A stretch of DNA of 56,491 bases from Eubacteriales bacterium (GCA_045588715.1 JAZNEQ010000151.1:1-56491), one strand, 5' to 3'; numbered from the stretch's first letter, positions 3,852 through 45,408 are shown. A program made the numbers and translations. The notes: generated from the sequence alone by a model not told the origin.

Positions 3852-3880
3852 TTGAAAAAAGAGGAAGAAAATGCTATAAT
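3852..3880 (+). promoter_or_regulatory. Sigma-A type promoter ahead of the TetR-led lipid operon
   Basis: TTGAAA (3852-3857), a 17-nt spacer, then TATAAT (3875-3880). Confidence 0.55.
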
Positions 3881-3931: not shown

Positions 3932-4522
3932 GTGTCACAGCTTACGAAAAAAGCAATCGTGGAGGCAACGCTGACGTTGGCGCAGAGCAAATCAATTTCA
4001 AAGATCACGGTGCGCGATATTGTAGAGCTTTGCGGCATTACGAGAAATACCTTCTATTATCATTTCCATGATATCTACGAGGTCCTTGAGGATATGATCG
4101 ATGCAAAATTCGATGCCTTGGAGGGAACGTGGGGAACCGATCCTCAAAATGCGATATACGAGTTGCGATCGTTTTTAAATGAACATAGAAAGATCCTTTT
4201 TAATCTTTATCGGGCAATCGGACACGAGACGTTGGAAAATTATCTGCTGCATCGTCTGCATGCCATTATAATGGAGATTTTATACGCTGAAAACGTGCAT
4301 TACGGTGTGCCTCTTACAAAGTTAGAGCTGATTGCCGACTTTTACGCGCAGGCGTTTACGGGACAGTTTTTAAAAAGGATGAAAACCGAAGGGGAGGACT
4401 TTTTTACCGATGCCGCAGAGCTTGATGAAATTTTCAGCGGGATTTTTGCATACTGCCTCGGCAACTGTAAGGGACTGTCCAAGAGCGATTCCCAAACGCT
4501 GGAAAAAAATGTAAAACCGTAA
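3932..4522 (+). CDS. TetR/AcrR family transcriptional regulator (DhaS-like subgroup)
   Basis: GTG start after GGAAAGGAGGG. The N-terminal HTH reads ITVRDIVELCGITRNTFYYHFHDIYEVLE, which resembles the dihydroxyacetone-kinase-regulator type of TetR protein. Confidence 0.75.
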   Translation: MSQLTKKAIVEATLTLAQSKSISKITVRDIVELCGITRNTFYYHFHDIYEVLEDMIDAKFDALEGTWGTDPQNAIYELRSFLNEHRKILFNLYRAIGHETLENYLLHRLHAIIMEILYAENVHYGVPLTKLELIADFYAQAFTGQFLKRMKTEGEDFFTDAAELDEIFSGIFAYCLGNCKGLSKSDSQTLEKNVKP

Positions 4523-4641: not shown

Positions 4642-5238
4642 ATGAACGAGCATTTCGATGTAAAGCCCAACAGTGCCGTTGTGAAAAGTGCCAAGATCAT
4701 GCATCTTTGCTCCTCGGTCATTTTTTTGATCGCGGGTCTTTTGATCGCGCTTATTCCCAATTTTGATGATTTTGATTTTTTTGGAACGATCGTTGTCGGT
4801 GTTGCAAGTATCATTATCGGGGTTACGGGAATTTACGGCTATTTTTCAAACGATATGTACCGTTTGGCATTTCAATCGGATTTTGCTTTGGGGATCTTTA
4901 ACGTTATCCTTGGTATTTTGCTGATCATCAAACCGGTACAGCTTCCCGTTCTTTTGCCAACGGCAATCTCTATTTTGACGTTGCTTGACGGCGGAAACAA
5001 ATCTCAGATCGCAATTGAAGGACAACGCTTTGGAATCCGCAAGTGGTATCTTGTGGTCTTTTCTGCGCTTCTTGAAATCGCGGCGGGAATTGTTTTGATC
5101 GTTTTGGCATATCACAGTATGGACGTTCGCATTTGGATGGGTGTTGCTATGGGTATTGTTGGCGTTACCAATTTTTGGACGACCATGTATACCGTCCGTA
5201 TTCGGGAAAATCATCAATTTTTGACAAATAAAAATTGA
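4642..5238 (+). CDS. Multi-pass membrane protein, HdeD/DUF308-like, function unknown
   Basis: RBS AAAGGAGAA. The 198-aa product has about 6 Gly-rich hydrophobic segments. The family assignment is tentative. Confidence 0.55.
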   Translation: MNEHFDVKPNSAVVKSAKIMHLCSSVIFLIAGLLIALIPNFDDFDFFGTIVVGVASIIIGVTGIYGYFSNDMYRLAFQSDFALGIFNVILGILLIIKPVQLPVLLPTAISILTLLDGGNKSQIAIEGQRFGIRKWYLVVFSALLEIAAGIVLIVLAYHSMDVRIWMGVAMGIVGVTNFWTTMYTVRIRENHQFLTNKN

Positions 5239-5248
5239 GGAAAATGAC

Positions 5249-6148
5249 ATGAGAAGAATTCAAGTGCTTACCGATTCTTGTTCCGATCTTTCGGGAGAGC
5301 TTCTTTTGAAGTACGGTATTGATTACTGCCGCATGAACACCGTACAAAACGAGGAGGAAACTCCGGCATCTCTTTTGTGGGAATACTATACTCCGCACGA
5401 GCTGTATGAGCTCATGCGTGCGGGGGAGCGAGTAAAAACCACGCAGGTTCCCCCCGCCGAATTTACAAGGGTGTTTACAAAGTATATAGAGGAGGGCTGC
5501 GATATCCTTTATGTCGGATGCTCCTCCAAGCAATCGGGTTCTGTGAACACTGCGACTGTAATTGCAAAAAAACTGAAGGAAACCTACCCGGATGCCAGTA
5601 TCCTTTGCGTTGATTCTCTCAACGCAAGTATGGGAGAGGGGCTTTTGGCGATCCGTGCGGCGGAGCTGGCAAGTGAGGGACTTCCTTTAGAAGATGTCTA
5701 TAATACGGTTCTTTCTCTTCGAAATTGCGTTAATCAATACGTAACCGTGCATTCCTTGCGTGCGCTTGAGCGCGCGGGGCGTGTGACGGCAAGTGCCGCT
5801 TTTTTGGGGAACCTTATGGGGGTCAAGCCGATTTTGATCTCCGACGCAGACGGAGTGCAGACCCCTATCAAAAAGACAAAAGGGCGCATGAATTCCTTTA
5901 AGGAAATCGTAGAACTGCTCGCAGGTTCGATTACGGACCCAACAACACAAACTGTATATATTGCGCATGCGGATTGTGCCGAAGCAGAGCTTGAGGAAAT
6001 GAAGCGTTTGATCAAGGCAAAAATTCCTTGCCGTGATATCGTATGCGTTTACATCGGCCCCATCATCGGTGCCAGCATTGGTCCCGATGCGATCGGGATT
6101 TGGGCGTTCGGTAACGAGGTTACCTACCGCGTAAGCGAGGTGAAATGA
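5249..6148 (+). CDS. fakB: DegV family fatty-acid-binding protein (FakB-type)
   Basis: 299 aa. The N-terminus IQVLTDSCSDLS is typical of DegV. Its stop overlaps the next start (ATGA at 6145-6148). Confidence 0.8.
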   Translation: MRRIQVLTDSCSDLSGELLLKYGIDYCRMNTVQNEEETPASLLWEYYTPHELYELMRAGERVKTTQVPPAEFTRVFTKYIEEGCDILYVGCSSKQSGSVNTATVIAKKLKETYPDASILCVDSLNASMGEGLLAIRAAELASEGLPLEDVYNTVLSLRNCVNQYVTVHSLRALERAGRVTASAAFLGNLMGVKPILISDADGVQTPIKKTKGRMNSFKEIVELLAGSITDPTTQTVYIAHADCAEAELEEMKRLIKAKIPCRDIVCVYIGPIIGASIGPDAIGIWAFGNEVTYRVSEVK

Positions 6149-7806
6149 TGGGAAGAACTTCGATCAACGGTTTTTTGTGGGCGGATATGGTTGCCGCCGG
6201 CGGCGGAAATCTTCATGCACACGTGGATGAAGTCAATGATCTCAACGTTTTTCCGATTCCCGACGGAGATACGGGCGAAAATATGATGCTGACGATGCAG
6301 GGCGGTGTTAAGGTGGCCGGGCAGGCAGATGCATCGCTTTGCGATACGGCAGCGCGGATCTCTGACGGGATGCTGCTTAGTGCACGCGGAAATTCCGGGG
6401 TGATCCTCTCTCAGTTTTTCGCAGGAATAGCGGAGGGCTTTCAGGCATGTAGCGAGGCCGACGTTCACGCCTTAGAAAAGGCAGTCGATCGCGGTGTTGG
6501 ATGTGCCTTTGAATCGGTCGTAACCCCCACAGAAGGAACGATCCTTACCGTTATGCGTGATGCCGCAAGGTACGCGGCAAATACCAATCCCAAAACGGTA
6601 GAGGAGTATTTTGACGCATTTATAGGAGAAGCACAGCGTTCGTTGGATCATACCCCCGAGCTTCTTCCCATTCTTCGCGAGGCCGGCGTCGTTGATTCGG
6701 GCGGCGCGGGATTGCTTTACATTGTAAAGGGGATGTATGCGTATCTCTGTGGCGAGGAGATCGCGAAGTCGGATGTCGGCTCTTTTGCAAGTGCGGCGGC
6801 GGTGGACCCAAATCTGTTTGATGAGAATAGCATTATGGAATTTGGGTATTGCACAGAGTTGTTGCTGCGCCTCCAAAATTGCAAGGTGGACACCGCTTGC
6901 TTTGACGCTGAGGTGATCACGGAATACCTCAACAGCGTGGGAGATTCGGTGGTGCTTGTGAAAAACGGCACTGTCGTGAAGCTGCACGTGCATACCATGA
7001 CCCCGTATAAGGTGCTTGAATTTTGTCAGCGCTTTGGGGAATTTCTCACCGTGAAAATAGAAAATATGATGCTCCAGCATAACGGCACCGCTAAAAAGGA
7101 GGACCCTGCTCCCACAGCGGTACAGGCAAATGCCGAGGTGCGCCAACGTTTTTCGGTCGTAACGGTTGCTACGGGCGAGGGGATTCAAAATGCCTTTCTT
7201 GAAATGGGCGCCGACGAGGTGATTCGCGGTGGGCAGACAATGAACCCCAGTGCCGAGGATTTTTTACAGGCATTTGATCGTGTGAATGCAGACGTTGTGT
7301 TCGTATTGCCTAACAATGGTAACGTTTTGCTTGCCGCTCGTCAAGCGGCACAGCTTTACCAAAAAAGCGACGTTCGCGTGGTTCCGACGCATTCGATCGG
7401 TGATGGATATGCTGTCCTTTCCATGCTGGATTTTGATAGCGGAGATCCCGATGCGATCGAAGCAGAAATGAACGCGGCGATGGAAGGCGTCCTTACCGCT
7501 GAAATTTCAAAAAGCATAAGAGATGCCGAAATAAACGGCATAAAAATTAAAAAGGACGACTATATCGGTATCGAAGGAAAGAGGATTTTGGCCTCGGGTC
7601 AGAGTCGCGAGGAGGTGACGTGCCGTACGGCAGATGCACTTGATCTTTCTTCACACTCTCTTCTCTTGCTCATCCGCGGCGACGGCGTAGATGAAAAGAA
7701 TTCCGCACCGATCGTATCTTATCTTCAAAGCAAATATCCCCTTGCTGAAATTTGCGAGGCGGATGGCGGTCAGGATATTTACGAGTATATTCTGGTTGCC
7801 GAATAA
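6145..7806 (+). CDS. fakA: DAK2-domain protein, YloV/FakA-type fatty acid kinase
   Basis: 553 aa, the length of YloV/FakA. It carries the DAK2 motif NVFPIPDGDTGENM and is translationally coupled to the DegV gene. Confidence 0.75.
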   Translation: MMGRTSINGFLWADMVAAGGGNLHAHVDEVNDLNVFPIPDGDTGENMMLTMQGGVKVAGQADASLCDTAARISDGMLLSARGNSGVILSQFFAGIAEGFQACSEADVHALEKAVDRGVGCAFESVVTPTEGTILTVMRDAARYAANTNPKTVEEYFDAFIGEAQRSLDHTPELLPILREAGVVDSGGAGLLYIVKGMYAYLCGEEIAKSDVGSFASAAAVDPNLFDENSIMEFGYCTELLLRLQNCKVDTACFDAEVITEYLNSVGDSVVLVKNGTVVKLHVHTMTPYKVLEFCQRFGEFLTVKIENMMLQHNGTAKKEDPAPTAVQANAEVRQRFSVVTVATGEGIQNAFLEMGADEVIRGGQTMNPSAEDFLQAFDRVNADVVFVLPNNGNVLLAARQAAQLYQKSDVRVVPTHSIGDGYAVLSMLDFDSGDPDAIEAEMNAAMEGVLTAEISKSIRDAEINGIKIKKDDYIGIEGKRILASGQSREEVTCRTADALDLSSHSLLLLIRGDGVDEKNSAPIVSYLQSKYPLAEICEADGGQDIYEYILVAE

Positions 7807-7833: not shown

Positions 7834-9141
7834 ATGACGAAGAGAAAAAATACAGCTTCGTCTTCCCATGTGTTTTCACCTCCGGAATTTACCAAAGAAA
7901 TGAAGTCCACGCACAAGATCTTAGCTCCCGATATTTTTCCTGTGCATATGGAGCTGATCAAGCTGATCTTCCGTATGTACGGCTATGATCTTGAGATTTT
8001 GAAGAGCCGCGGAAAAAAGGTAGTTGACAAGGGGTTGGAATTTATTCATAACGACATGTGTTACCCTGCGATCTGTATCAGCGGCCAACAGCTTTATGCC
8101 CTGACAAGCGGGGAATACGATCCGCACAAATGTGCGCTGATCCAGTTTCAAACCGGTGGCGGTTGCCGCGCATCCAACTACATCTGGTTGCTCAGAAAAG
8201 CACTTCACAATATGGGAATGGATTACGTTCCCGTTATTTCCTTAAGCTTTACGGGAATGGAGAAGGCAAGCGGATTTAAGATCACCCCCATGATGATTGC
8301 AAAGGCGATGGTAGCGATCATTTACGGAGATATGCTGATGCTGTTGCGCAATCAAGTGCGACCGTATGAAGTCAATGCGGGAGACTCTCAAAGAGTGATC
8401 GATCATTGGTATGCCGAATTGGCAGAACAATTCAAACACAATAAGGGGCTGTTTGGGAAGGCGTTGCGTAAAAATCTGCGCGCCATTGCCAAGGATTTTC
8501 ACGATATCCCGAAAAGGAATGAAAAAAAGACACGGGTCGGCATCGTTGGAGAGATCTACGTAAAATATTCCCCCTTTGGAAACAATGGCCTTGAAGAATT
8601 TTTAGACACGCAGGGGTGTGAATATATGGTCCCGGGTGTGCTTGGCTTTTTCCAATTTATGTTTGATAACAAGCAAACTGACTATCGCTTGTACGGTAAA
8701 AGCTTTAAAGCTGCGTTTGTTTCAAAAGGTGGGAGTGCCCTGACCGATCGGATCGAACGTATTTTTGTGGAGGTGCTTAGCGAATTCCCGGAATTTGTTA
8801 CGCCTACCTCCTTTAAAAATATACGCGCGTTGGGCGACAAGATCATTGGGCGCGGTGTAAAAATGGGCGAGGGATGGCTTTTGCCCGCAGAGGTGGCAGA
8901 GCTGATCGAAAAAGGATATAGCAACGTTATTTGTGCACAGCCCTTTGGCTGCCTTCCTAACCACGTGGTGGGAAAGGGGACGATCCGCACCTTGCGTGAG
9001 ATGTATCCAAATGCGAATATTTGTCCCATCGATTATGATGCGGGCGCTTCTCACGTCAATCAAGAAAACCGTATTAAGCTGATGCTGGCATTGGCAAGGG
9101 ACGGGGAATCCTCCAAAACCGAAAGCGGGGTGGCACAATGA
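7834..9141 (+). CDS. 2-hydroxyacyl-CoA dehydratase (HAD/BCR) family subunit-like protein (DUF2229-type); candidate plasmalogen synthase component
   Basis: 435 aa. Conserved Cys contexts are NDMCYPAICISGQ, QTGGGCRASNY and CAQPFGCLPNH. Its stop overlaps the next start (ATGA at 9138-9141). Confidence 0.7.
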   Translation: MTKRKNTASSSHVFSPPEFTKEMKSTHKILAPDIFPVHMELIKLIFRMYGYDLEILKSRGKKVVDKGLEFIHNDMCYPAICISGQQLYALTSGEYDPHKCALIQFQTGGGCRASNYIWLLRKALHNMGMDYVPVISLSFTGMEKASGFKITPMMIAKAMVAIIYGDMLMLLRNQVRPYEVNAGDSQRVIDHWYAELAEQFKHNKGLFGKALRKNLRAIAKDFHDIPKRNEKKTRVGIVGEIYVKYSPFGNNGLEEFLDTQGCEYMVPGVLGFFQFMFDNKQTDYRLYGKSFKAAFVSKGGSALTDRIERIFVEVLSEFPEFVTPTSFKNIRALGDKIIGRGVKMGEGWLLPAEVAELIEKGYSNVICAQPFGCLPNHVVGKGTIRTLREMYPNANICPIDYDAGASHVNQENRIKLMLALARDGESSKTESGVAQ

Positions 9142-12068
9142 AACGGCTCGGGATCGATATTGGCTCCACGACGATCAAATGCGTGTTGTTTGACGAAGCA
9201 GGAGCGTTGGTCTATAAAAGCTATGAGCGGCACAAATCCAAAATCTCTGAGAAAATGGCAGAGGTTTTGCGTACGGTGGATAAGCTCTACCCAAAGGAAA
9301 AGATGCTTCTTTCGGTGTCCGGATCTGCCGGTATGGGGCTTGCTACAGACATGGAGCTGCCCTTTGTGCAAGAGGTTTATGCCACACGCATTGCCGTAAA
9401 GGAACGGTTTCCCAAAACCGATGCGGTGATTGAGCTCGGCGGTGAAGATGCGAAGATCCTCTTTCTTTCAGGAGGAATGGAAATACGAATGAATGGCACG
9501 TGTGCCGGCGGCACAGGTGCGTTTATCGATCAAATGGCGGAATTGATGAACGTTTCCTCCGATGAAATGGATCTGTTGGCGCAAAAGCGTGAAAAAATCT
9601 ATACCATTGCATCGCGTTGCGGTGTGTTTGCAAAATCCGACGTGCAGCCGCTTTTGAATCAAGGAGCGCGCAAGGAGGATATCGCGGGAAGTATTCTTTA
9701 CGCAGTCGTCAACCAAACGGTAGGAGGCTTGGCACAGGGCAGACGCATCGAAGGAAACGTGCTCTATCTGGGTGGTCCCTTGACCTTTTTCGGATGTCTT
9801 CGCGCGGCATTTGACGACGTGCTGGGTATTGTGGGGCAGTGCCCCGAAAATTCTCTTTACTTTGTAGCGATGGGCGCGGCATATTCTTTGGAAGCACGTG
9901 AGGTTGATCTTTGCGGTCTTGCAGAGCGTGTGGAGGGGTATACTTCCTCTCATTCTTATCACGGGTGTGCTCCGCTCTTTTCTTCAAAGGATGCGTTTTA
10001 TAATTTCGTCAAAAGACACGAGGCAGATTCTGCGGGGATCTGTACCTTGCAAGCTCCCGCAAAGGAAATGTACCTTGGAATTGATGCGGGATCTACGACG
10101 GTAAAGGCAGTGCTGTGTGACGGAGAGGGGAATCTTTTTCGCACACTCTACACGCCAAACAGCGGAAATCCTGTACCGCTGATCAAGAAGTATCTTGAGG
10201 AGCTCTATCGCGATTACCCCGATGTTCACATTGTGAGCGCGGCGGCAACAGGATACGGCGAGCAGATCATCAAAAGCGCCTTCCATATTGATTACGGAAT
10301 TGTGGAAACGATCGCGCACTATACGGCAGCAAAGCATTTTTGCCCCGACGTGGATTTTATTTTGGATATTGGGGGGCAAGATATTAAATGTTTCCGGATC
10401 AAAAACGGTGCGATCGATAATATCTTTTTAAATGAAGCATGCTCCTCGGGTTGCGGTTCTTTTCTTCAAACCTTTGCGGCAGTGCTTGGATATTCCGTTA
10501 AGGAGTTTTCACAGCTTGCGCTTTTCGCCGATGCTCCCGTGGATCTTGGCTCAAGATGTACCGTTTTTATGAATAGCTCTGTCAAGCAAGCACAAAAGGA
10601 CGGTGCGAGCATTGAGAATATTTCGGCAGGACTTTCTATCAGTGTTGTAAAAAACGCATTGTACAAGGTGATCCGTTGTGCCGATCCCGCACAGCTTGGA
10701 AAAAAGATCGTTGTGCAAGGGGGAACTTTCCTCAATGATGCCGTGCTCCGCGCTTTTGAAATGGAGACCGGCAGAGAGGTACTTCGTCCCTCGGTCGCCG
10801 GCTTGATGGGGGCCTACGGTGCCGCACTTTACGCCAAGGAAATGTCGCGGGTGGGGCAAAAAAGCAGTATTGTTACCGCTTCCGATCTTGCGAACTTTTC
10901 ACACGACGTTAAAGCGCTTACCTGTAAGGGATGTAACAATCGTTGCCGTTTGACGGTAAATACCTTTTCTACGGGCGAAAAATACATTGCGGGGAATCGG
11001 TGTGAGCGTCCCTTAGAGCGTAAAAGCGAGCTGAAAAGATACGATCTTTATGAAGATAAGCTTGCTTTATTGTCGACTTATAGGAAAAACGAGCGTATCG
11101 AGGGGAGACCGACCGTGGGAATCCCGATGGGCTTGAATATGTATGAGTTACTTCCGTTCTGGCATACGTTTTTTACCAATCTTGGATATAACGTGATCGT
11201 TTCGGGGGACTCCAACCACAAGCTTTATCTCAAGGGACAGCATACCATTCCGTCGGATACTGTGTGTTATCCCGCAAAGCTTATGCATGGTCACGTGGAG
11301 GACCTTATCTCGCGCGGCGTGGATATGATCTTTTATCCCAGTATGACCTACAACGTCGATGAGGGGTTGGGTGTGAATCATTACAACTGTCCTGTGGTTG
11401 CTTACTATCCTGCTTTGCTTAAAGGCAACGTGCAATTCCCCAAGGAGATCCCGTTCGTCAACGGCTTTGTGGGACTCCACGATCCCGGGCTGTTTGTCAA
11501 ATATTTTGTTCGCATGATGGGAGAATACGGAATCGTTCTTAAGTCGGGTGCGGTCAAAAAAGCGGCAGACGTTGCTTACGGTGCCTACCGTTCGTATATG
11601 CAACGGATCAAGGCATTAGGCGATGAATATCTTGAAATCGCCAAGCGTGAGGGGAGGCGCGTGATCGTGCTTTCCGGGCGCCCTTATCACGTGGATCCCG
11701 AGATCAATCACGGCATTCACCGCTTGATTACCGACATGGGGGCTATCGTTGTGACCGAGGACTCCGTCGCATATCGCGAGGGAGCGATCAAAACCACTGT
11801 GCTGAATCAATGGACCTATCATTCGCGCTTATACAGTGCAGCGGGTTACGTTGCAAAATGCAAGGATCTTAAAATTGACTTGGTGCAGCTTGTTTCCTTT
11901 GGTTGCGGAGTTGATGCTGTGACAACAGATGAGACGCGCGCGATTATTGAAAGCGCGGGAAAGCTTTATACCCAGATCAAGATCGATGAAATCACCAATT
12001 TAGGAGCGGTTAAAATTCGTCTGCGCAGTCTTTTTGCTGTGCTGGACAAGGAAAAAGGAAGGAATTAA
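9138..12068 (+). CDS. BcrAD/BadFG-type double ATPase (activase) fused to a HAD-like domain; candidate plasmalogen synthase component
   Basis: 976 aa. It has two acetate/sugar-kinase-fold ATPase modules (GIDIGSTTIK...NGTCAGGTGAFIDQ and GIDAGSTTVK...NEACSSGCGSFLQ). A CKGCNNRC...GNRCERP cluster follows. The C-terminal HAD-like half carries DTVCYPAKL, YNCPVVAYYP and VSFGCGVDA. Confidence 0.75.
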   Translation: MKRLGIDIGSTTIKCVLFDEAGALVYKSYERHKSKISEKMAEVLRTVDKLYPKEKMLLSVSGSAGMGLATDMELPFVQEVYATRIAVKERFPKTDAVIELGGEDAKILFLSGGMEIRMNGTCAGGTGAFIDQMAELMNVSSDEMDLLAQKREKIYTIASRCGVFAKSDVQPLLNQGARKEDIAGSILYAVVNQTVGGLAQGRRIEGNVLYLGGPLTFFGCLRAAFDDVLGIVGQCPENSLYFVAMGAAYSLEAREVDLCGLAERVEGYTSSHSYHGCAPLFSSKDAFYNFVKRHEADSAGICTLQAPAKEMYLGIDAGSTTVKAVLCDGEGNLFRTLYTPNSGNPVPLIKKYLEELYRDYPDVHIVSAAATGYGEQIIKSAFHIDYGIVETIAHYTAAKHFCPDVDFILDIGGQDIKCFRIKNGAIDNIFLNEACSSGCGSFLQTFAAVLGYSVKEFSQLALFADAPVDLGSRCTVFMNSSVKQAQKDGASIENISAGLSISVVKNALYKVIRCADPAQLGKKIVVQGGTFLNDAVLRAFEMETGREVLRPSVAGLMGAYGAALYAKEMSRVGQKSSIVTASDLANFSHDVKALTCKGCNNRCRLTVNTFSTGEKYIAGNRCERPLERKSELKRYDLYEDKLALLSTYRKNERIEGRPTVGIPMGLNMYELLPFWHTFFTNLGYNVIVSGDSNHKLYLKGQHTIPSDTVCYPAKLMHGHVEDLISRGVDMIFYPSMTYNVDEGLGVNHYNCPVVAYYPALLKGNVQFPKEIPFVNGFVGLHDPGLFVKYFVRMMGEYGIVLKSGAVKKAADVAYGAYRSYMQRIKALGDEYLEIAKREGRRVIVLSGRPYHVDPEINHGIHRLITDMGAIVVTEDSVAYREGAIKTTVLNQWTYHSRLYSAAGYVAKCKDLKIDLVQLVSFGCGVDAVTTDETRAIIESAGKLYTQIKIDEITNLGAVKIRLRSLFAVLDKEKGRN

Positions 12069-12070
12069 CT

Positions 12071-12709
12071 ATGTCAACAGAATTTATTGTACTCTCTGTG
12101 ATCGCAGCACTGACCGCATATCTCTTGGGAGGAATCAACGGTGCGATGATTCTTTCCAGGCTGGTTTATCACGAAGACATAAGAACAAAAGGAAGTGGGA
12201 ACCCCGGCTTTACCAATTTTAAGCGTGTGCACGGTTTTTGTCCCGCAACTTTTGCAGCAATGGCAATCGACATTTTAAAAACCGTTATTCCTGTACTTAC
12301 CTACATGCTTCTGTTTGGACATTTCTTTGAAAATGGGCAGTTTGGTGCCGTTTTCACGCTTTTGTTCTGTATGCTGGGGCATTGCTTCCCGGTTTGGTAC
12401 AAATTCAAGGGTGGCAAGGCGGTGCTGGCTTACCTTTCAGGAATTTGGTTTGTAGACTGGAAAATGGGTCTTATCTGTTTTGGGATTTTTGTCGTCATTC
12501 TTTTGACGATCAAATACATGTCCCTGGCATCTATGACCTTTGCTTTTACAAGCCCGATCGTCCTATTCCTTTTGGGATGCAGGGATTGGTTGGTTCTTGT
12601 GACTGCCGCCATTCTCTCTATTCTCGTTATCGCTCGCCATCATCAAAATATCGTTCGCCTTTGCAAGGGAACGGAATCAAAGTTTACCCTCAAAAGTAAA
12701 AAGGCATAA
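12071..12709 (+). CDS. plsY: Acyl-phosphate:glycerol-3-phosphate acyltransferase PlsY
   Basis: The 212-aa membrane protein carries the motif TKGSGNPGFTNFKRVHG and starts 2 nt after the previous stop. Confidence 0.88.
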   Translation: MSTEFIVLSVIAALTAYLLGGINGAMILSRLVYHEDIRTKGSGNPGFTNFKRVHGFCPATFAAMAIDILKTVIPVLTYMLLFGHFFENGQFGAVFTLLFCMLGHCFPVWYKFKGGKAVLAYLSGIWFVDWKMGLICFGIFVVILLTIKYMSLASMTFAFTSPIVLFLLGCRDWLVLVTAAILSILVIARHHQNIVRLCKGTESKFTLKSKKA

Positions 12710-12747
12710 AAAAATCGGCGCTTGTTTTTGCAAGCGCCGATTTTTTT
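12708..12747. terminator. Bidirectional terminator (end of lipid operon and of the convergent MBL gene)
   Basis: ATCGGCGCTTG (12714-12724) pairs with CAAGCGCCGAT (12731-12741), flanked by A7 and T7. Confidence 0.8.
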
Positions 12748-12753
12748 ATCTCA

Positions 12754-13437
12754 TCAGAGATCGATCTCCTCGTAGATCCTTGGGGTGACCTTTGCGGGAT
12801 GAACAAATTTTTCGTCTGTGAGCGAATCAAACATTCCAATGTGGTAAGGAACGGCATATTTGGCTCCTGTGCGGAGGGCAAAGCGCGAGGCATCTGCCAT
12901 GTTCATATTGTTGCCCTTGCCGTTGCAGGGAAGAAAGATCGCGTGCAGCTCCTTTTTGGGAAGGGAAGCGAGTACACGTTCGCTATACAGCGTATCTCCC
13001 GTAACGTAATAGCTTTTTCCCTCTGCCGACAGGATCACGCCAATGGCGTAAGGGTCGGAGTGCTCTGCGGCTACCGCGTGGATACGTACGTTTCCCTCGG
13101 TCCACTTCGTTCCTGCATTGAATAGAATATAGTTGCATTTTGTATTGGGATAGGTTTTGCGCAGGTCGGCATATCCTCCCGTGGGGCAAAAGACCAGTGC
13201 CTTCGACTCCTCTGTCAAATAGTGCTTTAAGGTTTCGTGATCCAAATGATCCAAGTGGTTGTGCGTGATCACGATCATATCGGGGGAGATCTTTAAAAAA
13301 CGCTCATCTACAGGAACGCGCCGTGCGTTTTGCGGTTCAAAATTTTTAACGTTGTCCGAAAGGTAGGGGTCGATTACGATTTTTTTGCCGTCCGTTTCAA
13401 ACAAAAGTCCGGCTTGCCCTAAGTAAGTGATCTTCAT
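12754..13437 (-). CDS. MBL-fold metallo-hydrolase
   Basis: 227 aa with the HxHxDH motif ITHNHLDHLDH. Confidence 0.75.
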   Translation of the reverse strand: MKITYLGQAGLLFETDGKKIVIDPYLSDNVKNFEPQNARRVPVDERFLKISPDMIVITHNHLDHLDHETLKHYLTEESKALVFCPTGGYADLRKTYPNTKCNYILFNAGTKWTEGNVRIHAVAAEHSDPYAIGVILSAEGKSYYVTGDTLYSERVLASLPKKELHAIFLPCNGKGNNMNMADASRFALRTGAKYAVPYHIGMFDSLTDEKFVHPAKVTPRIYEEIDL

Positions 13438-13440
13438 TGT

Positions 13441-14247
13441 TTACTCCTTTTCGTAGGTCGTGTTCCGATAGGGGGTTCCGATAAATGCAACTTGACGAAA
13501 ATCTTCAAAGTTGTGGCGAATGACGTAATCAATGTATGCGGCAACCAATTTTGCGGTGTAGATATAACCGATGGGGCTCATATGACCGCCAAGAAAAAAG
13601 GTGTCGCGGAATTCTTGGTCGTAATCGGGGGCATATTTGCGAAGGTCCAAAACGTAACAGTTGGAAAAAAGGTCGGCGAGCTGATAAAAAAGATCGGCTT
13701 GTCGGTCGGTCTGCGCGCACTTGAATTTTGCATCGTCGGCGGTCTCATAGGGCATGGTCATTAAAAAGAACTTTGCGTCGGGTTGGATCTCCTTATAGCG
13801 TTGGATGATCTTTGCGTAGTGCCCCGCATAGGTGTCTTTGTTTAGTCTCCAGTCCGCTACACATACGTCCTCAATGCTTCCCACCTCACCGCGACGGCAG
13901 ATCAGGTCGTTTACACCCAAGGCGATAATGTAGCACTGTGCGGCGTATTCTCGGTTCCAATAGCCGTGCGCGTCGGCAAAGCGGTCACAATATTCCTTTG
14001 CGGTCATGCCCCCGCATGAAAAATTGTAAACGCGACTTGCGCACATGCGTCCCAAATACTGTCCCCAGGAATATTCGTAAAAATCATGAAAGCCCTTGCC
14101 GCCATCGGGCTTTGTGCTTTCCATTTCTCCGGAGGAAAGGCTGTCACCTACACATGCAATGGTACGGAAAATGCCACAGTAACCACCGTCGAAGGGGATG
14201 TTGTCAAGTGGCTTTTCATTGGGATCAGGACATAAAAAACGATTCAT
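13441..14247 (-). CDS. SGNH/GDSL-type hydrolase
   Basis: I take the start at 14247 (MNRFLCPD..., GGAGA plus 6 nt). Block I reads ACVGDSLSSGE. Confidence 0.7.
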   Translation of the reverse strand: MNRFLCPDPNEKPLDNIPFDGGYCGIFRTIACVGDSLSSGEMESTKPDGGKGFHDFYEYSWGQYLGRMCASRVYNFSCGGMTAKEYCDRFADAHGYWNREYAAQCYIIALGVNDLICRRGEVGSIEDVCVADWRLNKDTYAGHYAKIIQRYKEIQPDAKFFLMTMPYETADDAKFKCAQTDRQADLFYQLADLFSNCYVLDLRKYAPDYDQEFRDTFFLGGHMSPIGYIYTAKLVAAYIDYVIRHNFEDFRQVAFIGTPYRNTTYEKE

Positions 14248-14367
14248 AGTTGTCTCCTTGAAAGAAATAGATGCAGGCGAGCACATGGGTGCCACCTGCA
14301 TTTATTTTACCATATATCGGTGGATTTGTCGATAGAAAAATGAAAAAAACAGGGGCGCTTTACGTTT

Positions 14368-15675
14368 TTAAGTCTCGTATCTTTTCATAAACTCGTCCAT
14401 TTTTACAAGCTTGCCGCCTGCAAGTCTGGATTCCTCCGCAGCAAAGGCGATCATATGATTGTCGCAGGATTCGCGGATCGAGCATACTGATTTGTTGGAA
14501 ATTCCGTGGATAAGATCCCTGAGTGAGGCAATAATGCCCTGGTCTCCGCCGCCGTGACCGCTGACGATAGTGTCTCCTGCCAGAGTGCTGTTACAGTCGT
14601 GCTCGCGCAGTGCACCCGTTTCAAGATTGTAAACGGTGATCTTATTGTTTTCAGCAAAGGCCTCGATCTCACCTTTCGTTCCCATAATGCGCATTCTTCT
14701 GCCTCCGAGATTGAAGGCACTCATGGTAAAGCTGACGAATACGTCGTCGGCAAACTGTAAATTCACAATCTGATGGTCAACGACGTCATTGTCGCACTTG
14801 TAAACGCATTTTCCGTATTCTGTGGTGCGAAGTACCTTTTCCACGTCAGCGTCGGTAGGATCGGTGAGCTTAGTGGCAGCGGTACGGTGCCATCTGCCGC
14901 GGCCTGTGTCGTTGGATTCCTCCAGGTAAAGCTTGACGGAATTGTAAGGGCAGGTATTTGCATGAGGACAGCCGTCGATGCAACGTGCAGGGGTGCCCTC
15001 GGGAGCATTTTCTTTGGTAAAGTAGGAAAGAGAACCAAAGCTTTGCACGGCGATACACGGCTTCCCGATCAGCCATGCGAGAATATCCATATCGTGGCAA
15101 GATTTTTGCAAAAGCATAAAGGAACTGCGTGTGCTGTTGCCCCAGTTTCCTCTGACAAAGCTGTGACTTTGATGGATATTTCCAACGCCTTCGATATGTT
15201 GAATATTCATGATCTTACCAATTTCGCCCGAATCGATAATGCTTTTGATCGCACGGTAGAAATTGGTATAGCGAAGCACATGACAGATCAAAACGAAGAC
15301 ACCCTTTTTCTCTGCGGCCTTTTCAATGGCGCGACATTCCTCGGCGGTAGGGGCGGCGGGCTTTTCCAGAAGTAGATCGTAGCCCTTTTCGATTGCCGCC
15401 ATTGCGGGGGCAAAATGCCCGCGATCCATCGTAGCGATCAGTGCGACGTCTGCCATTTTCGGGAGGGTGAGAAGCGGCTCCCAGGTTGTAAAACAGAATT
15501 CGTCGGGGATATTGTGCTTGCTTTTTACGTAATTTCTTCGATCGTCGATGGGCTCGGCAACGGCGACGACCTCAAAATCATCGGAAAACTGATTTGCCAT
15601 AATGTTGGTGTATCCCATGCCACGGCCGCCCGCACCGATGAGAATGACCTTTTTCTTAACCTTGGAAGTGCTCAT
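14368..15675 (-). CDS. Gfo/Idh/MocA family oxidoreductase (long form with Cys-rich insert)
   Basis: N-terminal Rossmann motif KVILIGAGGRGMGY. The insert reads CIDGCPHANTCPY...GKCVYKC. Confidence 0.75.
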   Translation of the reverse strand: MSTSKVKKKVILIGAGGRGMGYTNIMANQFSDDFEVVAVAEPIDDRRNYVKSKHNIPDEFCFTTWEPLLTLPKMADVALIATMDRGHFAPAMAAIEKGYDLLLEKPAAPTAEECRAIEKAAEKKGVFVLICHVLRYTNFYRAIKSIIDSGEIGKIMNIQHIEGVGNIHQSHSFVRGNWGNSTRSSFMLLQKSCHDMDILAWLIGKPCIAVQSFGSLSYFTKENAPEGTPARCIDGCPHANTCPYNSVKLYLEESNDTGRGRWHRTAATKLTDPTDADVEKVLRTTEYGKCVYKCDNDVVDHQIVNLQFADDVFVSFTMSAFNLGGRRMRIMGTKGEIEAFAENNKITVYNLETGALREHDCNSTLAGDTIVSGHGGGDQGIIASLRDLIHGISNKSVCSIRESCDNHMIAFAAEESRLAGGKLVKMDEFMKRYET

Positions 15676-20037: not shown

Positions 20038-21627
20038 ATGCTGTTTACGTCTGCTTCGTTTGTTCTTTTTGCGTGCATCACGCTTCTTTTATATTTTCTG
20101 GTGCCCAAAAAGCTGCAATGGTGGGTTCTTTTGGGGGCAAGCCTTGCATTTTATGCCCTTTGCGGCGTGGAATATATCTTTTTTATTCTCTATACCGCAA
20201 CGGTTACCTACGTAGCCGCGCTGCTTTTGCAAAAGCGAGCGGACGGCGAGGACGCCTATATAGAGGCACACCGTGCGGACATGGATAAAACAGAGCGGAA
20301 GGCATATCGCGCAAGAGAAAAGAAAAAAAGATTCCGTATTTTGTTGGCGGGGCTTTTTTTGGGACTTGGTATGCTTGCCGTTTTGAAATATACCGCTTTT
20401 GTTTTAAACGGTGTATCCTCGGTGGTGACCGCCTTTGGGGGAGAGGGAATCGCGATCCCTTCCTTGATCTTGCCGTTGGGGATTTCCTTTTACACCTTTC
20501 AATCGATGGGATACCTCATCGACGTTTACCGAAAAAAGGCAACTGCCGAGCGAAATTACGGAAAGCTTTTGCTTTTCGTATCCTTCTTTCCGCAATTGCT
20601 CCAAGGACCGATCAGCCGCTTTGATTCCTTGCACGATCAATTGATCACACCGCATCGCTTCCACGCATTTTCCTTCCGTGCGGGGCTTTTGCGGGTCATG
20701 TGGGGATATTTTAAAAAGCTTTTGATGGCAGATACCGCAATGATCGGCATCAAGCTTCTCATTGCCGATCCGGAGAAATACGGTGGAATTTACGTGTTTC
20801 TTCTCATTCTCTTGTATTCCGCGCAGATTTACGGCGATTTTACGGGTGGGATCGACATTACGATAGGCCTTTGCGAAATGATGGGGATTCGACTGGTTGA
20901 AAACTTCAACCATCCCTTTTCCTCAAAATCTACCAAGGAATACTGGAACCGCTGGCACATTACCATGGGCGCATGGTTTACCGATTACGTGTTTTACCCC
21001 TTGTCGGTCTGCCGTCCGATGCAACGCTTTTCTTTGTTTTCTACCAAAAAATTCGGCAAGGCATTAGGGCTTCGCTTACCCGTTTACGTTGCAACGGTTG
21101 TCACTTGGTTTTTAACGGGGCTTTGGCATGGCGCGGGCTGGAATTTTATCGTATGGGGGCTTCTTAACTGCCTTGTGATCTTGGTTTCACGTGAGTTGGA
21201 GCCGCTTTACCGTGCTTTTCACAAAAAATTCCCACGCCTTGCTTCTTCCTCTGTGTGGGGGGGCTGGTGTGCAGTTCGTACCTTCCTGCTCATGGGACTT
21301 ATTCGCTCTCTTGACTGTTACCGTGACGTTTCTACCACCTTTTCACAGTGGGGGAGCATGATCACCCGCTTCAATATCGGGGAGCTGTTTGCCGGGGGGA
21401 TTACTTCCTTTGGTCTTACGTATTTCGATTTTGGTGTGATCCTTCTCTCTGTACTCACGGTGTTTCTTGTCAGCCGCGCGGGAAAAGAGGAGCCGGTGCG
21501 TCACCGTGTGGCATCGCGCCCGATTTTGTGGTGCTTCCTTGTCTGCTTGCTCTTCGTAGTTGTTTTGGTGTTCGGGGCATACGGCATTGGATATGACGCA
21601 TCGCAATTTATCTATTCGCAATTCTGA
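20038..21627 (+). CDS. MBOAT family membrane O-acyltransferase (DltB/AlgI-like)
   Basis: 529-aa polytopic protein. The conserved His context is FLTGLWHGAGWNF. The region LPLGISFYTFQSMGYLIDVYR is typical of AlgI/DltB. Confidence 0.85.
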   Translation: MLFTSASFVLFACITLLLYFLVPKKLQWWVLLGASLAFYALCGVEYIFFILYTATVTYVAALLLQKRADGEDAYIEAHRADMDKTERKAYRAREKKKRFRILLAGLFLGLGMLAVLKYTAFVLNGVSSVVTAFGGEGIAIPSLILPLGISFYTFQSMGYLIDVYRKKATAERNYGKLLLFVSFFPQLLQGPISRFDSLHDQLITPHRFHAFSFRAGLLRVMWGYFKKLLMADTAMIGIKLLIADPEKYGGIYVFLLILLYSAQIYGDFTGGIDITIGLCEMMGIRLVENFNHPFSSKSTKEYWNRWHITMGAWFTDYVFYPLSVCRPMQRFSLFSTKKFGKALGLRLPVYVATVVTWFLTGLWHGAGWNFIVWGLLNCLVILVSRELEPLYRAFHKKFPRLASSSVWGGWCAVRTFLLMGLIRSLDCYRDVSTTFSQWGSMITRFNIGELFAGGITSFGLTYFDFGVILLSVLTVFLVSRAGKEEPVRHRVASRPILWCFLVCLLFVVVLVFGAYGIGYDASQFIYSQF

Positions 21628-40737: not shown

Positions 40738-40775
40738 TTTTAACGAAATATAATAGGCTTGTTCTAAAATGATTG

Positions 40776-40815
40776 AACCTCCCATATATTGTATCAACGC
40801 GATATACGGGAGGTT
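40776..40815 (+). terminator. Hairpin that terminates the MFS operon; its 3' arm contains the spoIVA Shine-Dalgarno
   Basis: AACCTCCCATATAT (40776-40789) pairs with ATATACGGGAGGTT (40802-40815) with one mismatch. TTTAT and the ATG at 40821 follow. Confidence 0.5.
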
Positions 40816-40820
40816 TTATC

Positions 40821-42299
40821 ATGCCGGAGCATTCAATTTATAAAGACATTGCCGAGCGGACAGGCGGAGATATTTACGTTGGAGTCGTAGGACCGGTCCG
40901 CAGTGGAAAGTCCACGTTTATTAAGAGGTTTATGGAAGAGGTCGTGCTTCCCAATATCGGGGAAGGGTATTCCCGCGACCGCGCTCGGGATGAGCTGCCG
41001 CAATCGGCAGCGGGAAAGACTGTGATGACCACCGAGCCGAAGTTTATTCCCGAGGATGCGGTTCCCGTGGTGTTGGAAAACAACGCCCAAATGCGCGTCC
41101 GTATGATCGATTGTGTGGGCTATCTGATTCCCGAGGCTATGGGGGCGATCGAGGACGGTCAACCGCGCATGGTAAGAACGCCCTGGCGGGAGGAGCCAAT
41201 GCCGTTTGTTGAGGCGGCAGAAATGGGGACCCATAAGGTCATTACCGAGCATTCCACCATAGGAATGCTTGTTACGACGGACGGAACGATCGGTGAAATA
41301 CCGCGCGATGCGTATATTGAAGCCGAGGAGCGCATCGTAAAGGAACTGCGGGAGATCGGAAAGCCCTTTGCGATTATTCTGAATTCCGCGCAGCCCGCGT
41401 CCGAAAACGCAAGGAATCTTGCTTTTGAATTGGAGGAAAAATACGCAGCTCCCGTTGCTCTTGTCAGTTGTTTGGAGCTGGATGCAGAAGATATCCGTCA
41501 TATTCTGGGGCTTGTGCTGGAGGAATTCCCGGTTACAGAGATTCGCATTCGCGTTCCCGAATGGATGAGTGCCTTGCCGGAGGACCACCGCATCCGTTCT
41601 TCTGTCCGCGCCTCTGTTTGCCGTTGTGCAGATCTTGTTTCTCGTATCGGGGACGTGAGGGACGCATTTGAAAAAATGTGCGAAAATGAATATACCGAAA
41701 AGGCGCAGGTCAGCGCGCTGGAGCTGGGCACGGGAAAGGCGTGTGTCGATCTTGAGATGCGCCGCGGACTTTATTATGAGATCGTTAGCGAAGTGACGGG
41801 ATTTTCGGTGCAAAGTGAGCGTGAATTGATTGCGCTTCTGTGCGAGCTTTCCAAAATGAAGGTGCGATACGACAAGGTGGCGGAGGCACTGGACGAGGTC
41901 AGCGCGGGCGGTTACGGGATCGTGATGCCCGACGTGGAGGATCTGAGACTTGAGGAGCCGCAGATCGTCAAGCAGGCGGGCGGTTACGGTGTCAAGCTTC
42001 GTGCCGCGGCACAGTCGGTACACATGATCCGTGCCAATATTCAGGCGGAGATCAATCCCATGGTGGGAACCGAGGAGCAATCAGAGGATCTTGTACGCTA
42101 TCTTCTCAAGGAATTTGAAGAGGATCCCAAGAGCATTTGGCAGTCCAATATGTTTGGGAAATCCTTGTATGAGTTGATCAACGAAGGACTTCATACCAAG
42201 CTTGAGCATATGCCGCCGGAGTCAAGAGAAAAGCTTTCGGAAACCTTGGAGAGGATCGTGAACGAAGGAAGCAATGGGCTGATCTGTATTCTTTTGTGA
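40821..42299 (+). CDS. spoIVA: Stage IV sporulation protein A (spore-coat morphogenetic ATPase)
   Basis: 492 aa from the ATG at 40821. The segment IYKDIAERTGGDIYVGVVGPVRSGKSTFIKRFME..ELPQSAAGKTVMTTEPKF matches SpoIVA closely. Confidence 0.92.
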   Translation: MPEHSIYKDIAERTGGDIYVGVVGPVRSGKSTFIKRFMEEVVLPNIGEGYSRDRARDELPQSAAGKTVMTTEPKFIPEDAVPVVLENNAQMRVRMIDCVGYLIPEAMGAIEDGQPRMVRTPWREEPMPFVEAAEMGTHKVITEHSTIGMLVTTDGTIGEIPRDAYIEAEERIVKELREIGKPFAIILNSAQPASENARNLAFELEEKYAAPVALVSCLELDAEDIRHILGLVLEEFPVTEIRIRVPEWMSALPEDHRIRSSVRASVCRCADLVSRIGDVRDAFEKMCENEYTEKAQVSALELGTGKACVDLEMRRGLYYEIVSEVTGFSVQSERELIALLCELSKMKVRYDKVAEALDEVSAGGYGIVMPDVEDLRLEEPQIVKQAGGYGVKLRAAAQSVHMIRANIQAEINPMVGTEEQSEDLVRYLLKEFEEDPKSIWQSNMFGKSLYELINEGLHTKLEHMPPESREKLSETLERIVNEGSNGLICILL

Positions 42300-44801: not shown

Positions 44802-45362
44802 ATGGCACATCCTTTTTTGCATCTGAAAACCATTACGCGCCACCGCCATCGGGTGATTGCACATTGCTTTCGCGCGGGAATTGGTTTTCAAGGGCTTTTT
44901 CACGATCTTTCCAAATATTCGCCTACGGAATTTATTCCGGGGGCTCGCCACTATATTGGGACAAGAAGCCCCAACGAGGGGGAACGGGAGGTGCTTGGAT
45001 ATTCTCTTGCATGGATGCATCATAAGGGAAGAAATCGGCATCATTTCGAGTATTGGAACGATCTCAATCCAAAATCCAAAATGTACGAGCCTGTCAAAAT
45101 GCCCATACGCTTTGTAAAGGAAATGTTTTGCGACCGTGTTGCCGCCAGCAAGATTTATAAGGGGAAGGAATATACCGATACAATGCCGCTTGAGTATTTT
45201 TTACGCGGAAACGCGCGAAAGAAAATGCACGCGGATACCGCAGATCTTTTGGAGGAGTGGCTGACCCTCCTTGCCGAAAAGGGGGAAGAGGCGGCTTTTG
45301 CGCATTTGCGAACTCTTCCAAACGATGCGTCTTACGGAAAAGAGGAGAAAGCAGAGGAGTGA
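44802..45362 (+). CDS. His-rich HD-like protein of unknown function (DUF5662-like)
   Basis: ATG at 44802. The 186-aa product carries RHRHRVIAHC, GLFHDLSKY and WMHHKGRNRHHFEYW. Confidence 0.5.
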   Translation: MAHPFLHLKTITRHRHRVIAHCFRAGIGFQGLFHDLSKYSPTEFIPGARHYIGTRSPNEGEREVLGYSLAWMHHKGRNRHHFEYWNDLNPKSKMYEPVKMPIRFVKEMFCDRVAASKIYKGKEYTDTMPLEYFLRGNARKKMHADTADLLEEWLTLLAEKGEEAAFAHLRTLPNDASYGKEEKAEE

Positions 45363-45408
45363 TCTGCTTCGTTGCATCAAATATTACGTTCTACAAAGGA
45401 GAGCAAAA

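Follow-up and report, generated by a model that had tools for sequence, protein, structure and literature searches.

The window analyzed here is a 56,491-nucleotide (nt) stretch of DNA from an Eubacteriales bacterium (GCA_045588715.1, JAZNEQ010000151.1:1-56491), with a guanine-plus-cytosine (GC) content of 48%. It carries two adjacent open reading frames (ORFs), here named plsR and plsA, which encode proteins of 435 and 976 amino acids (aa) and which, from their similarity to the characterized genes of Clostridium perfringens, probably specify an anaerobic plasmalogen synthase. The plsR start is preceded, at a distance of about 7 nt, by a GAAGG ribosome-binding site, and the junction of the two genes reads GCA CAA TGA / ATG AAA, giving a 4-nt ATGA overlap. 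An earlier reading of the window, made from the nucleotide sequence alone (the sequence-only reading), had described two genes overlapping in this way, together with a set of cysteine motifs, and the ORF listing and a motif search recovered all of them. In the 976-aa protein, the motifs begin at residues 119 (NGTCAGGTGAF), 432 (NEACSSGCGSF), 596 (CKGCNNRC), 619 (GNRCERP), 707 (DTVCYPAKL), 749 (YNCPVV), and 920 (SFGCGVDA), and in the 435-aa protein, they begin at residues 73 (NDMCYPAICI), 108 (GGGCRASNY), and 369 (QPFGCLPNH). Metagenome runs that contain the stretch come from bovine gut, gut, and faeces.

The sequence-only reading had named BcrAD_BadFG, HGD-D, and DUF2229 as domains to map. In Pfam, the 976-aa protein matched BcrAD_BadFG over two stretches (E value, 5.4e-61) and DUF2229 at residues 659 to 877 (4.5e-72); the 435-aa protein gave a DUF2229 match only below threshold (22 bits against a cutoff of 29.4) and no match to HGD-D (PF06050) even at an E value of ≤10. 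The NCBIfam match of the 976-aa protein was TIGR00241 (CoA_E_activ; 1.1e-72). Both proteins have thousands of homologues, the close ones in metagenome-assembled genomes (MAGs) of Clostridia, and an exhaustive phmmer scan of 1.84 billion cluster representatives with the 435-aa protein returned 432 representatives at an E value of ≤1e-30 and 1,837 at ≤1e-10. A contig search for the exact 435-aa protein returned no record. The close homologues are usually named “2-hydroxyacyl-CoA dehydratase” or “2-hydroxyglutaryl-CoA dehydratase.” Neither protein matched a PlsA- or PlsR-specific model in NCBIfam or Pfam, and the absence of such a match in NCBIfam would explain these generic database names.

The characterized system is the plsA-plsR operon of C. 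perfringens, CPE1194-1195 (PMC12838417, PMC8788747); our definition of the PlsA/PlsR family was taken from secondary sources. To obtain a C. perfringens reference, we took the plsA forward cloning primer from the literature (PMC12838417 Table S6) and scanned metagenome contigs with its gene-specific portion. Eleven contigs matched, with 28 to 30% GC and 97 to 99% mutual identity across the locus. On one of them (L083), the primer matches at a TTG start codon that opens a 975-aa ORF, and an 8-nt spacer separates this ORF from a second one of 421 aa. The locus spans 4,202 bp (28.5% GC), which agrees with the 4,199 bp published for the fragment, and the spacer agrees with the “short non-coding region” reported there. 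In BLASTP comparisons, the 976-aa protein was 53% identical to C. perfringens PlsA over residues 3 to 972 (E value, 0), and the 435-aa protein was 49% identical to C. perfringens PlsR (6e-147). On the strength of these identities, we assign the 976-aa protein as PlsA and the 435-aa protein as PlsR, an assignment that the sequence-only reading had left undecided. The enzymes of Enterococcus faecalis and Lactococcus cremoris are 48 to 55% and 41 to 42% identical to C. perfringens PlsA and PlsR (PMC12838417), and the window pair is thus as close or closer to the reference than they are.

Like the window pair, C. perfringens PlsA (CPE1194, Q8XL48) and PlsR (CPE1195, Q8XL47) are two proteins, of 975 and 421 aa. 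Their Pfam profiles also agree with those of the window proteins: C. perfringens PlsA shows two BcrAD_BadFG stretches and DUF2229, and PlsR shows a weak DUF2229 match (27.5 bits) without PF06050. The single-gene PlsA proteins of E. faecalis (EF1327, Q835P9), L. cremoris, and Bifidobacterium longum subsp. suis have the same domains, and their distance from C. perfringens PlsA/PlsR is similar to that of the window proteins, but they are single polypeptides of about 1,400 to 1,640 aa with the A-R order, whereas the window has two polypeptides in the R-A order. Expression in Escherichia coli leads to plasmalogens both with plsAR of C. perfringens and with the single-gene PlsA proteins from L. cremoris and B. 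longum subsp. suis (PMC12838417; PMC9702350); for the latter two, plasmalogens were detected by high-performance liquid chromatography and the strains were Schiff positive (PMC12838417). The window pair belongs to an ordinary, widely distributed, and already characterized enzyme family. The features of the locus are collected in the table.

Features of the window and of comparison loci (window positions unless a locus is named; E values from Pfam)
Feature	Position	Strand	Remarks
Sigma-70-like promoter candidate	3852..3880	+	TTGAAA-17-TATAAT, extended TG; 11/12 match, best of the region; consensus match only
TetR-family regulator	3932..4522	+	Pfam TetR_N, TetR_C_8; head of the cluster
DUF308 small membrane protein	4642..5238	+	Pfam DUF308, 1.6e-7
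fakB, DegV/FakB-type fatty-acid-binding protein	5249..6148	+	Pfam DegV, 4.9e-58; TIGR00762, 216 bits, above cutoff
fakA, FakA/YloV-type fatty acid kinase catalytic subunit	6145..7806	+	Pfam Dak2, FakA-like_M, FakA-like_C
plsR	7834..9141	+	435 aa, ATG start; predicted HAD/BCR-fold Fe-S subunit; universal Cys76, Cys111, Cys373
plsA	9138..12068	+	976 aa, ATG start; ATPase-ATPase-4-Cys patch-DUF2229 fusion
plsA ATPase module 1	9144..9884	+	Residues 3-249; putative cluster ligands Cys122, Cys161; Cys in 70/70
plsA ATPase module 2	10074..10865	+	Residues 313-576; putative ligands Cys435, Cys474; also invariant Cys418, Cys439; 70/70
4-Cys patch of plsA	10923..11003	+	C596-x2-C599-x3-C603-x18-C622; between ATPases and catalytic half
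plsA catalytic half	11112..12065	+	DUF2229, predicted HAD/BCR/DCCP fold; universal Cys710, Cys751, Cys923 (70/70)
plsY, acyl-phosphate:glycerol-3-phosphate sn-1 acyltransferase	12071..12709	+	Pfam G3P_acyltransf, 2.5e-43; TIGR00023 PlsY, 143 bits, above cutoff
Strong bidirectional intrinsic-terminator-like hairpin	12706..12749		19-bp stem, A and T runs at flanks; closes the cluster
PlsC-type acyltransferase just upstream of plsA	L037 3840-5041		Also in L038, L046, L048, L052, L064
YgiQ-like radical-SAM gene of C. perfringens-type locus	L083 6108-8096	+	Radical_SAM_N and DUF3362
DUF2227 metal-binding protein gene of C. perfringens-type locus	L083 12655-13248	-	

Both N-terminal modules of PlsA matched the activator ATPases HgdC (1hux), HadI (4eht), MbdQ/MbdP (9gai), and DCCP-R (7yyl) of solved structures, with E values down to 1e-31. 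Module 1 matched HgdC (1hux_A) by phmmer at 3e-25, and module 2 matched HadI (4eht_A) at 1.4e-31 and HgdC at 1.1e-30. The alignments pair Cys122 and Cys161 (module 1) with Cys127 and Cys166 of HgdC, and Cys435 and Cys474 (module 2) with the corresponding activator-cluster cysteines of HadI. In the HgdC structure, Cys127 and Cys166 are the two ligands that each monomer contributes to the bridging [4Fe-4S] cluster. Since each HgdC monomer gives two ligands, the tandem pair of modules could build one bridging cluster within a single polypeptide.

We then turned to the predicted structures of the catalytic halves. The AlphaFold2 (AF2) model of the 435-aa protein had a predicted local distance difference test (pLDDT) score of 84 and a predicted template modeling (pTM) score of 0.86; that of PlsA residues 570 to 976 had values of 85.6 and 0.84. 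In Foldseek searches of the PDB, the PlsR model matched HadC (3o3m_B; E value, 1.6e-5), double-cubane cluster protein (DCCP; 7yzm/6eno), and BzdNO (8s02), and the PlsA model matched DCCP (7yyl/7yzm; 7e-7), HadC (3o3n_B/3o3m_B), MbdON (9gai_B/9g87_B), and BzdNO. The top matches of both halves were solely HadBC, BzdNO, MbdON, and DCCP, with E values from 1e-4 to 7e-7. These family matches had template modeling (TM) scores of 0.4 to 0.5 at a probability of 1.00, while unrelated alpha/beta folds scored about 0.2, and on this basis both halves are modeled as having the catalytic fold of the 2-hydroxyacyl-CoA dehydratase/benzoyl-CoA reductase (HAD/BCR)/DCCP group. A comparison of the PlsR and PlsA family profiles with hhalign gave a 43-column match at 14% probability around a D-x-CYPA motif, which is the sole profile-level similarity between the two halves; given so weak a match, their paralogy rests on fold, not on sequence.

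To assess conservation, we aligned 77 PlsR and 70 PlsA sequences covering both gene-order classes (see below) and C. perfringens. Three cysteines of PlsR (C76, C111, and C373) were invariant in 77/77 sequences, and thirteen of PlsA were invariant in 70/70: C122, C161, C418, C435, C439, C474, C596, C599, C603, C622, C710, C751, and C923. All of the putative cluster cysteines are present in C. perfringens PlsA/PlsR. This invariance, together with the thousands of homologues, argues that the ORF pair is not a product of chance. In addition, PlsR Cys81 (window 8074-8076) marks one clade cleanly. This position, which follows the universal Cys76 by five residues, is Cys in 25/25 sequences with plsR upstream and Leu or Ile in the 52/52 with plsA upstream. 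Cys81 and Cys262 of the window PlsR are replaced in C. perfringens PlsR by Ile and Ala, respectively.

The architecture proposed in the sequence-only reading was upheld by these analyses: two BcrAD/BadFG ATPase modules with cluster-helix cysteines, a CxxCxxxC...C patch after them (Cys in 70/70 homologues, including C. perfringens), and two HAD-like halves, one in the C terminus of the 976-aa protein and one in its 435-aa partner. A lack of conservation of the cysteine ligands would have counted against that reading, and the alignment showed the opposite. In the AF2 model, the four-cysteine patch is part of a small element of beta sheet (pLDDT, about 70 to 80). A distant R-A fusion protein (P0324) lacks the patch, which is hence not universal in the wider family.

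The wider HAD/BCR family offers further parallels. HadBC/HadI and HgdAB/HgdC share with the window pair the ATP-dependent activator fold with its bridging-cluster cysteine pair, as well as the predicted fold of the catalytic subunits; in the window, however, two activator modules in tandem are joined to one of the catalytic subunits, and no sequence similarity to the catalytic subunits of HadBC or HgdAB was detected. The substrates of the 2-hydroxyacyl-CoA dehydratases are acyl-CoA compounds, whereas that of the window enzyme would be a lipid ester. 2-Hydroxyacyl-CoA dehydratases also recycle a single electron. By comparison, the proposed plasmalogen synthase reaction consumes two (PMC8788747). 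BzdNOPQ, MbdONPQ, and DCCP/DCCP-R likewise combine a heterodimeric or tandem ATPase pair with a HAD-fold catalytic pair and perform stoichiometric ATP-coupled reductions, although on substrates that differ from that of the window pair. The clusters of PlsA/PlsR may be of the [4Fe-4S] or the double-cubane type.

The genes around plsR and plsA bear on the substrate. The fakB gene overlaps the start of fakA by ATGA, plsY begins 2 nt past the plsA stop codon, and from fakB through plsY the genes overlap or are separated by gaps of ≤27 nt; the TetR gene has larger gaps of 79 nt and 119 nt on its two sides. The terminator-like hairpin lies between the plsY stop codon and a convergent MBL-fold gene (12754-13437, minus strand). 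The plsR and plsA genes are probably cotranscribed with fakB-fakA and plsY. The fakB product scored 124 bits with the FakB1 model, below the equivalog cutoff, and the fakA product scored 517 bits with TIGR03599 (YloV), above the cutoff, and 435 bits with FakA_VfrB, below the equivalog cutoff. For the TetR regulator, the best NCBIfam model was DhaS (TIGR02366; 62 bits, below cutoff). A search for a palindromic TetR operator near two promoter-like sites gave only weak AT-rich inverted repeats. According to a review, facultative anaerobes typically have a TetR gene upstream of pls, whereas strict anaerobes lack one (PMC9702350); in the former, a TetR/AcrR gene lies directly upstream, while the TetR gene of the window lies four genes upstream and is DhaS-like. 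The window regulator may go with the Dak2-domain fakA genes and not with pls.

The window genes that were checked included no CoA-transferase or acyl-CoA gene, in keeping with the sequence-only reading, which had argued from this absence for a lipid rather than an acyl-CoA substrate. The PlsA/PlsR identity and the fakB, fakA, and plsY neighbors support that substrate, and with these three genes as flanks, the contextual argument is stronger than was stated there. A second, independent tie of the pls family to glycerolipid synthesis is found where plsA lies upstream of plsR: six such loci carry, directly next to plsA, one or two genes for PlsC-type (PF01553) acyltransferases. The genomic context thus supports a glycerolipid substrate in both gene-order classes. 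The C. perfringens-type locus L083 is flanked instead by the YgiQ-like radical-SAM and DUF2227 genes. We searched the literature for reports connecting plasmalogen genes with fatty acid kinase or PlsY and obtained nothing relevant.

To place the gene order of the window, we scanned contigs with a PlsR alignment and retained the 80 closest species-representative loci, among which C. perfringens was not included. The closest of them (L001), from a “Ruminococcus sp.” MAG, was 84% and 79% identical to the window pair. In 24 loci and the window (25/77), plsR lies upstream of plsA (the R>A order), about half of them sharing the 4-nt overlap; in 51 loci and C. perfringens, plsA lies upstream (the A>R order). 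C. perfringens has plsA, an 8-nt spacer, and plsR, while the window has plsR, the ATGA overlap, and plsA. In neighbor-joining trees rooted on C. perfringens, the R>A set formed a clade in 50/50 resamplings for PlsR and 49/50 for PlsA, and in these trees the R>A order defines a monophyletic Oscillospiraceae-type clade. Among the sampled loci, FakB, FakA, DUF308, TetR, and PlsY neighbors were found only in this clade, in six to nine loci each: the TetR regulator and DUF308 were each conserved in six R>A loci, and plsY adjoined the pls genes in nine. Most R>A loci are without fak and plsY neighbors.

Fused forms were also recovered. The representative search contained A-R fusions of about 1,400 to 1,480 aa and one R-A fusion, P0324 (1,364 aa), with a PlsR-like segment at residues 6 to 411, ATPases at 432 to 998, and DUF2229 at 1049 to 1266. 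P0324 is 43% identical to the window PlsA and is circularly permuted relative to the A-R fusion of the E. faecalis type. Domain and gene order are evidently flexible in the PlsA/PlsR family, and we regard gene order as an organizational feature, not a functional one. What is new here, the reversed and translationally coupled order and the fakBA-plsY operon, amounts to modest organizational novelties of one clade.

A plausible working scheme can be outlined for the encoded enzyme, in which we infer the cluster types, the electron path, the substrate, the product, and cotranscription. Free fatty acid would be converted to acyl-phosphate by FakB-FakA, and PlsY would place the acyl group on the sn-1 position of glycerol-3-phosphate; synthesis of PlsR and PlsA would be translationally coupled through the ATGA overlap. 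The two actin-fold ATPase modules of PlsA would act as a pseudo-dimer holding one bridging [4Fe-4S] cluster on Cys122/Cys161 and Cys435/Cys474. Reduced ferredoxin or flavodoxin would load this cluster, and ATP hydrolysis would drive a low-potential electron into a catalytic heterodimer formed by the DUF2229 half of PlsA (Cys710/751/923) and PlsR (Cys76/111/373), each half with a HAD/BCR fold and a three-cysteine site for an Fe-S cluster. There, two electrons and two protons would be taken up and water would be lost as the sn-1 acyl ester of a glycerophospholipid becomes a 1-alk-1'-enyl (vinyl) ether. This course, in which the ester is reduced twice, protonated, and dehydrated, follows the proposal made for the family (PMC8788747, PMC10191378).

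Taken together, the identity to C. perfringens PlsA/PlsR, which is of the degree expected of orthologues, the shared domain architecture, the predicted folds, the invariant cysteines, and the gene context make it rather probable that plsR and plsA encode an anaerobic plasmalogen synthase. Several points weigh against this reading. The window order, plsR-plsA, is the reverse of that of the characterized operon. TM scores to solved HAD/BCR/DCCP subunits were no higher than 0.4 to 0.5, and neither catalytic half gave a sequence-level PDB match (searched with PlsR alone and with a 40-sequence profile). A search for RNA runs found none carrying the locus that could support cotranscription.

A further point concerns the product. 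PlsA and the alkyl-ether-forming glycerol ester reductase Ger are inseparable by sequence, and the two are currently unassignable from primary sequence according to the authors of that work (PMC13274423); a vinyl ether and a Ger-like alkyl ether are therefore two products between which sequence cannot decide. The window pair could accordingly be a Ger-type enzyme, which would use the same ATP-driven Fe-S machinery to reduce the sn-1 (possibly also the sn-2) ester to a saturated alkyl ether. Ger, exemplified by Thermotoga maritima Tmari_0479 and Desulfatibacillum alkenivorans SHJ90043, is homologous to PlsA and shares its BcrAD-BcrAD-DUF2229 core; its activity is anaerobic and directed at the sn-1 ester of glycerolipids (PMC13159169). 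Two activation domains, which the window protein has, were suggested to correlate with alkyl-ether production (PMC13274423). We rejected this feature as a mark of Ger, as C. perfringens PlsA also shows two BcrAD_BadFG stretches. We set the window pair apart from Ger by the published description: validated Ger enzymes are single polypeptides in which HGD-D (PF06050) and short DUF2229 segments follow DUF2229 at the C terminus and which form saturated alkyl ethers (PMC13159169), whereas the window partner is a separate protein that gave no PF06050 match. The split architecture, the absence of PF06050, and the 53% and 49% identity to bona fide PlsA and PlsR favor PlsAR over Ger on sequence grounds, and we consider the Ger reading unlikely.

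The tight fakB-fakA-plsR-plsA-plsY arrangement, seen among the sampled loci only in the R>A clade, raises the question of whether the enzymes of this clade differ in function. FakB/FakA and PlsY could channel scavenged fatty acids to the sn-1 position, where the coupled PlsR-PlsA would form the ether, with action on an early intermediate (lysophosphatidate or phosphatidate) or a product spectrum different from that of C. perfringens, under DhaS-like TetR control in a strict anaerobe; we regard such functional distinctness as improbable. The narrower proposal, that the clade enzyme acts specifically on the lysophosphatidate or phosphatidate derived from PlsY and FakAB acyl-phosphate and not on mature phospholipids, draws on the same arrangement and appears distinctly improbable: gene clustering does not define a substrate, bacterial plasmalogens are described as derived from the corresponding diacyl lipids (PMC9702350), and most R>A loci do not have these neighbors. 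Finally, a 2-hydroxyacyl-CoA dehydratase or other acyl-CoA radical enzyme with a fused activator, as the database names and the HAD/BCR-family fold and activator would suggest, is very improbable given the missing PF06050 match, the lack of sequence-level similarity to HgdAB or HadBC, the absence of CoA-transferase and acyl-CoA genes among those checked in the window, the gene neighbors, and the high identity to PlsA and PlsR.

With plasmalogen synthase as the preferred assignment, this enzyme would be present in many uncultured rumen and gut Oscillospiraceae-type Clostridia, where its annotation as “2-hydroxyacyl-CoA dehydratase” is misleading. Gut anaerobes that produce plasmalogens currently attract interest in connection with host ether-lipid supply, colitis, and ferroptosis (PMC10076029). 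R>A loci and R-A fusions can be overlooked or wrongly split when a survey is built around a plsA-plsR operon or an A-R fusion. The fakAB/plsY link in the R>A class and the plsC-like link in the A>R class provide independent genomic support for a glycerolipid role, and the former suggests a testable tie between exogenous fatty-acid uptake and ether-lipid synthesis. Our understanding of the PlsA/PlsR enzyme family itself is unchanged by the findings in this window.

The window comes from the chromosome of a spore former within the Clostridia; genes elsewhere on it encode SpoIVA (40773-42299, plus strand), PheT (51652-54057, minus strand), and an MBOAT-family membrane O-acyltransferase (20038-21627, plus strand). 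A 1,593-aa ORF at 45271-50052 (plus strand) matched no Pfam family at an E value of ≤1e-3; read from the TTG start given for it, this ORF may not be a genuine gene. Convergent with the operon, at 12754-15675 on the minus strand, lie genes for the MBL-fold hydrolase, a GDSL lipase/acylhydrolase, and a Gfo/Idh/MocA oxidoreductase; the position of the GDSL lipase beside a lipid operon may be a coincidence.

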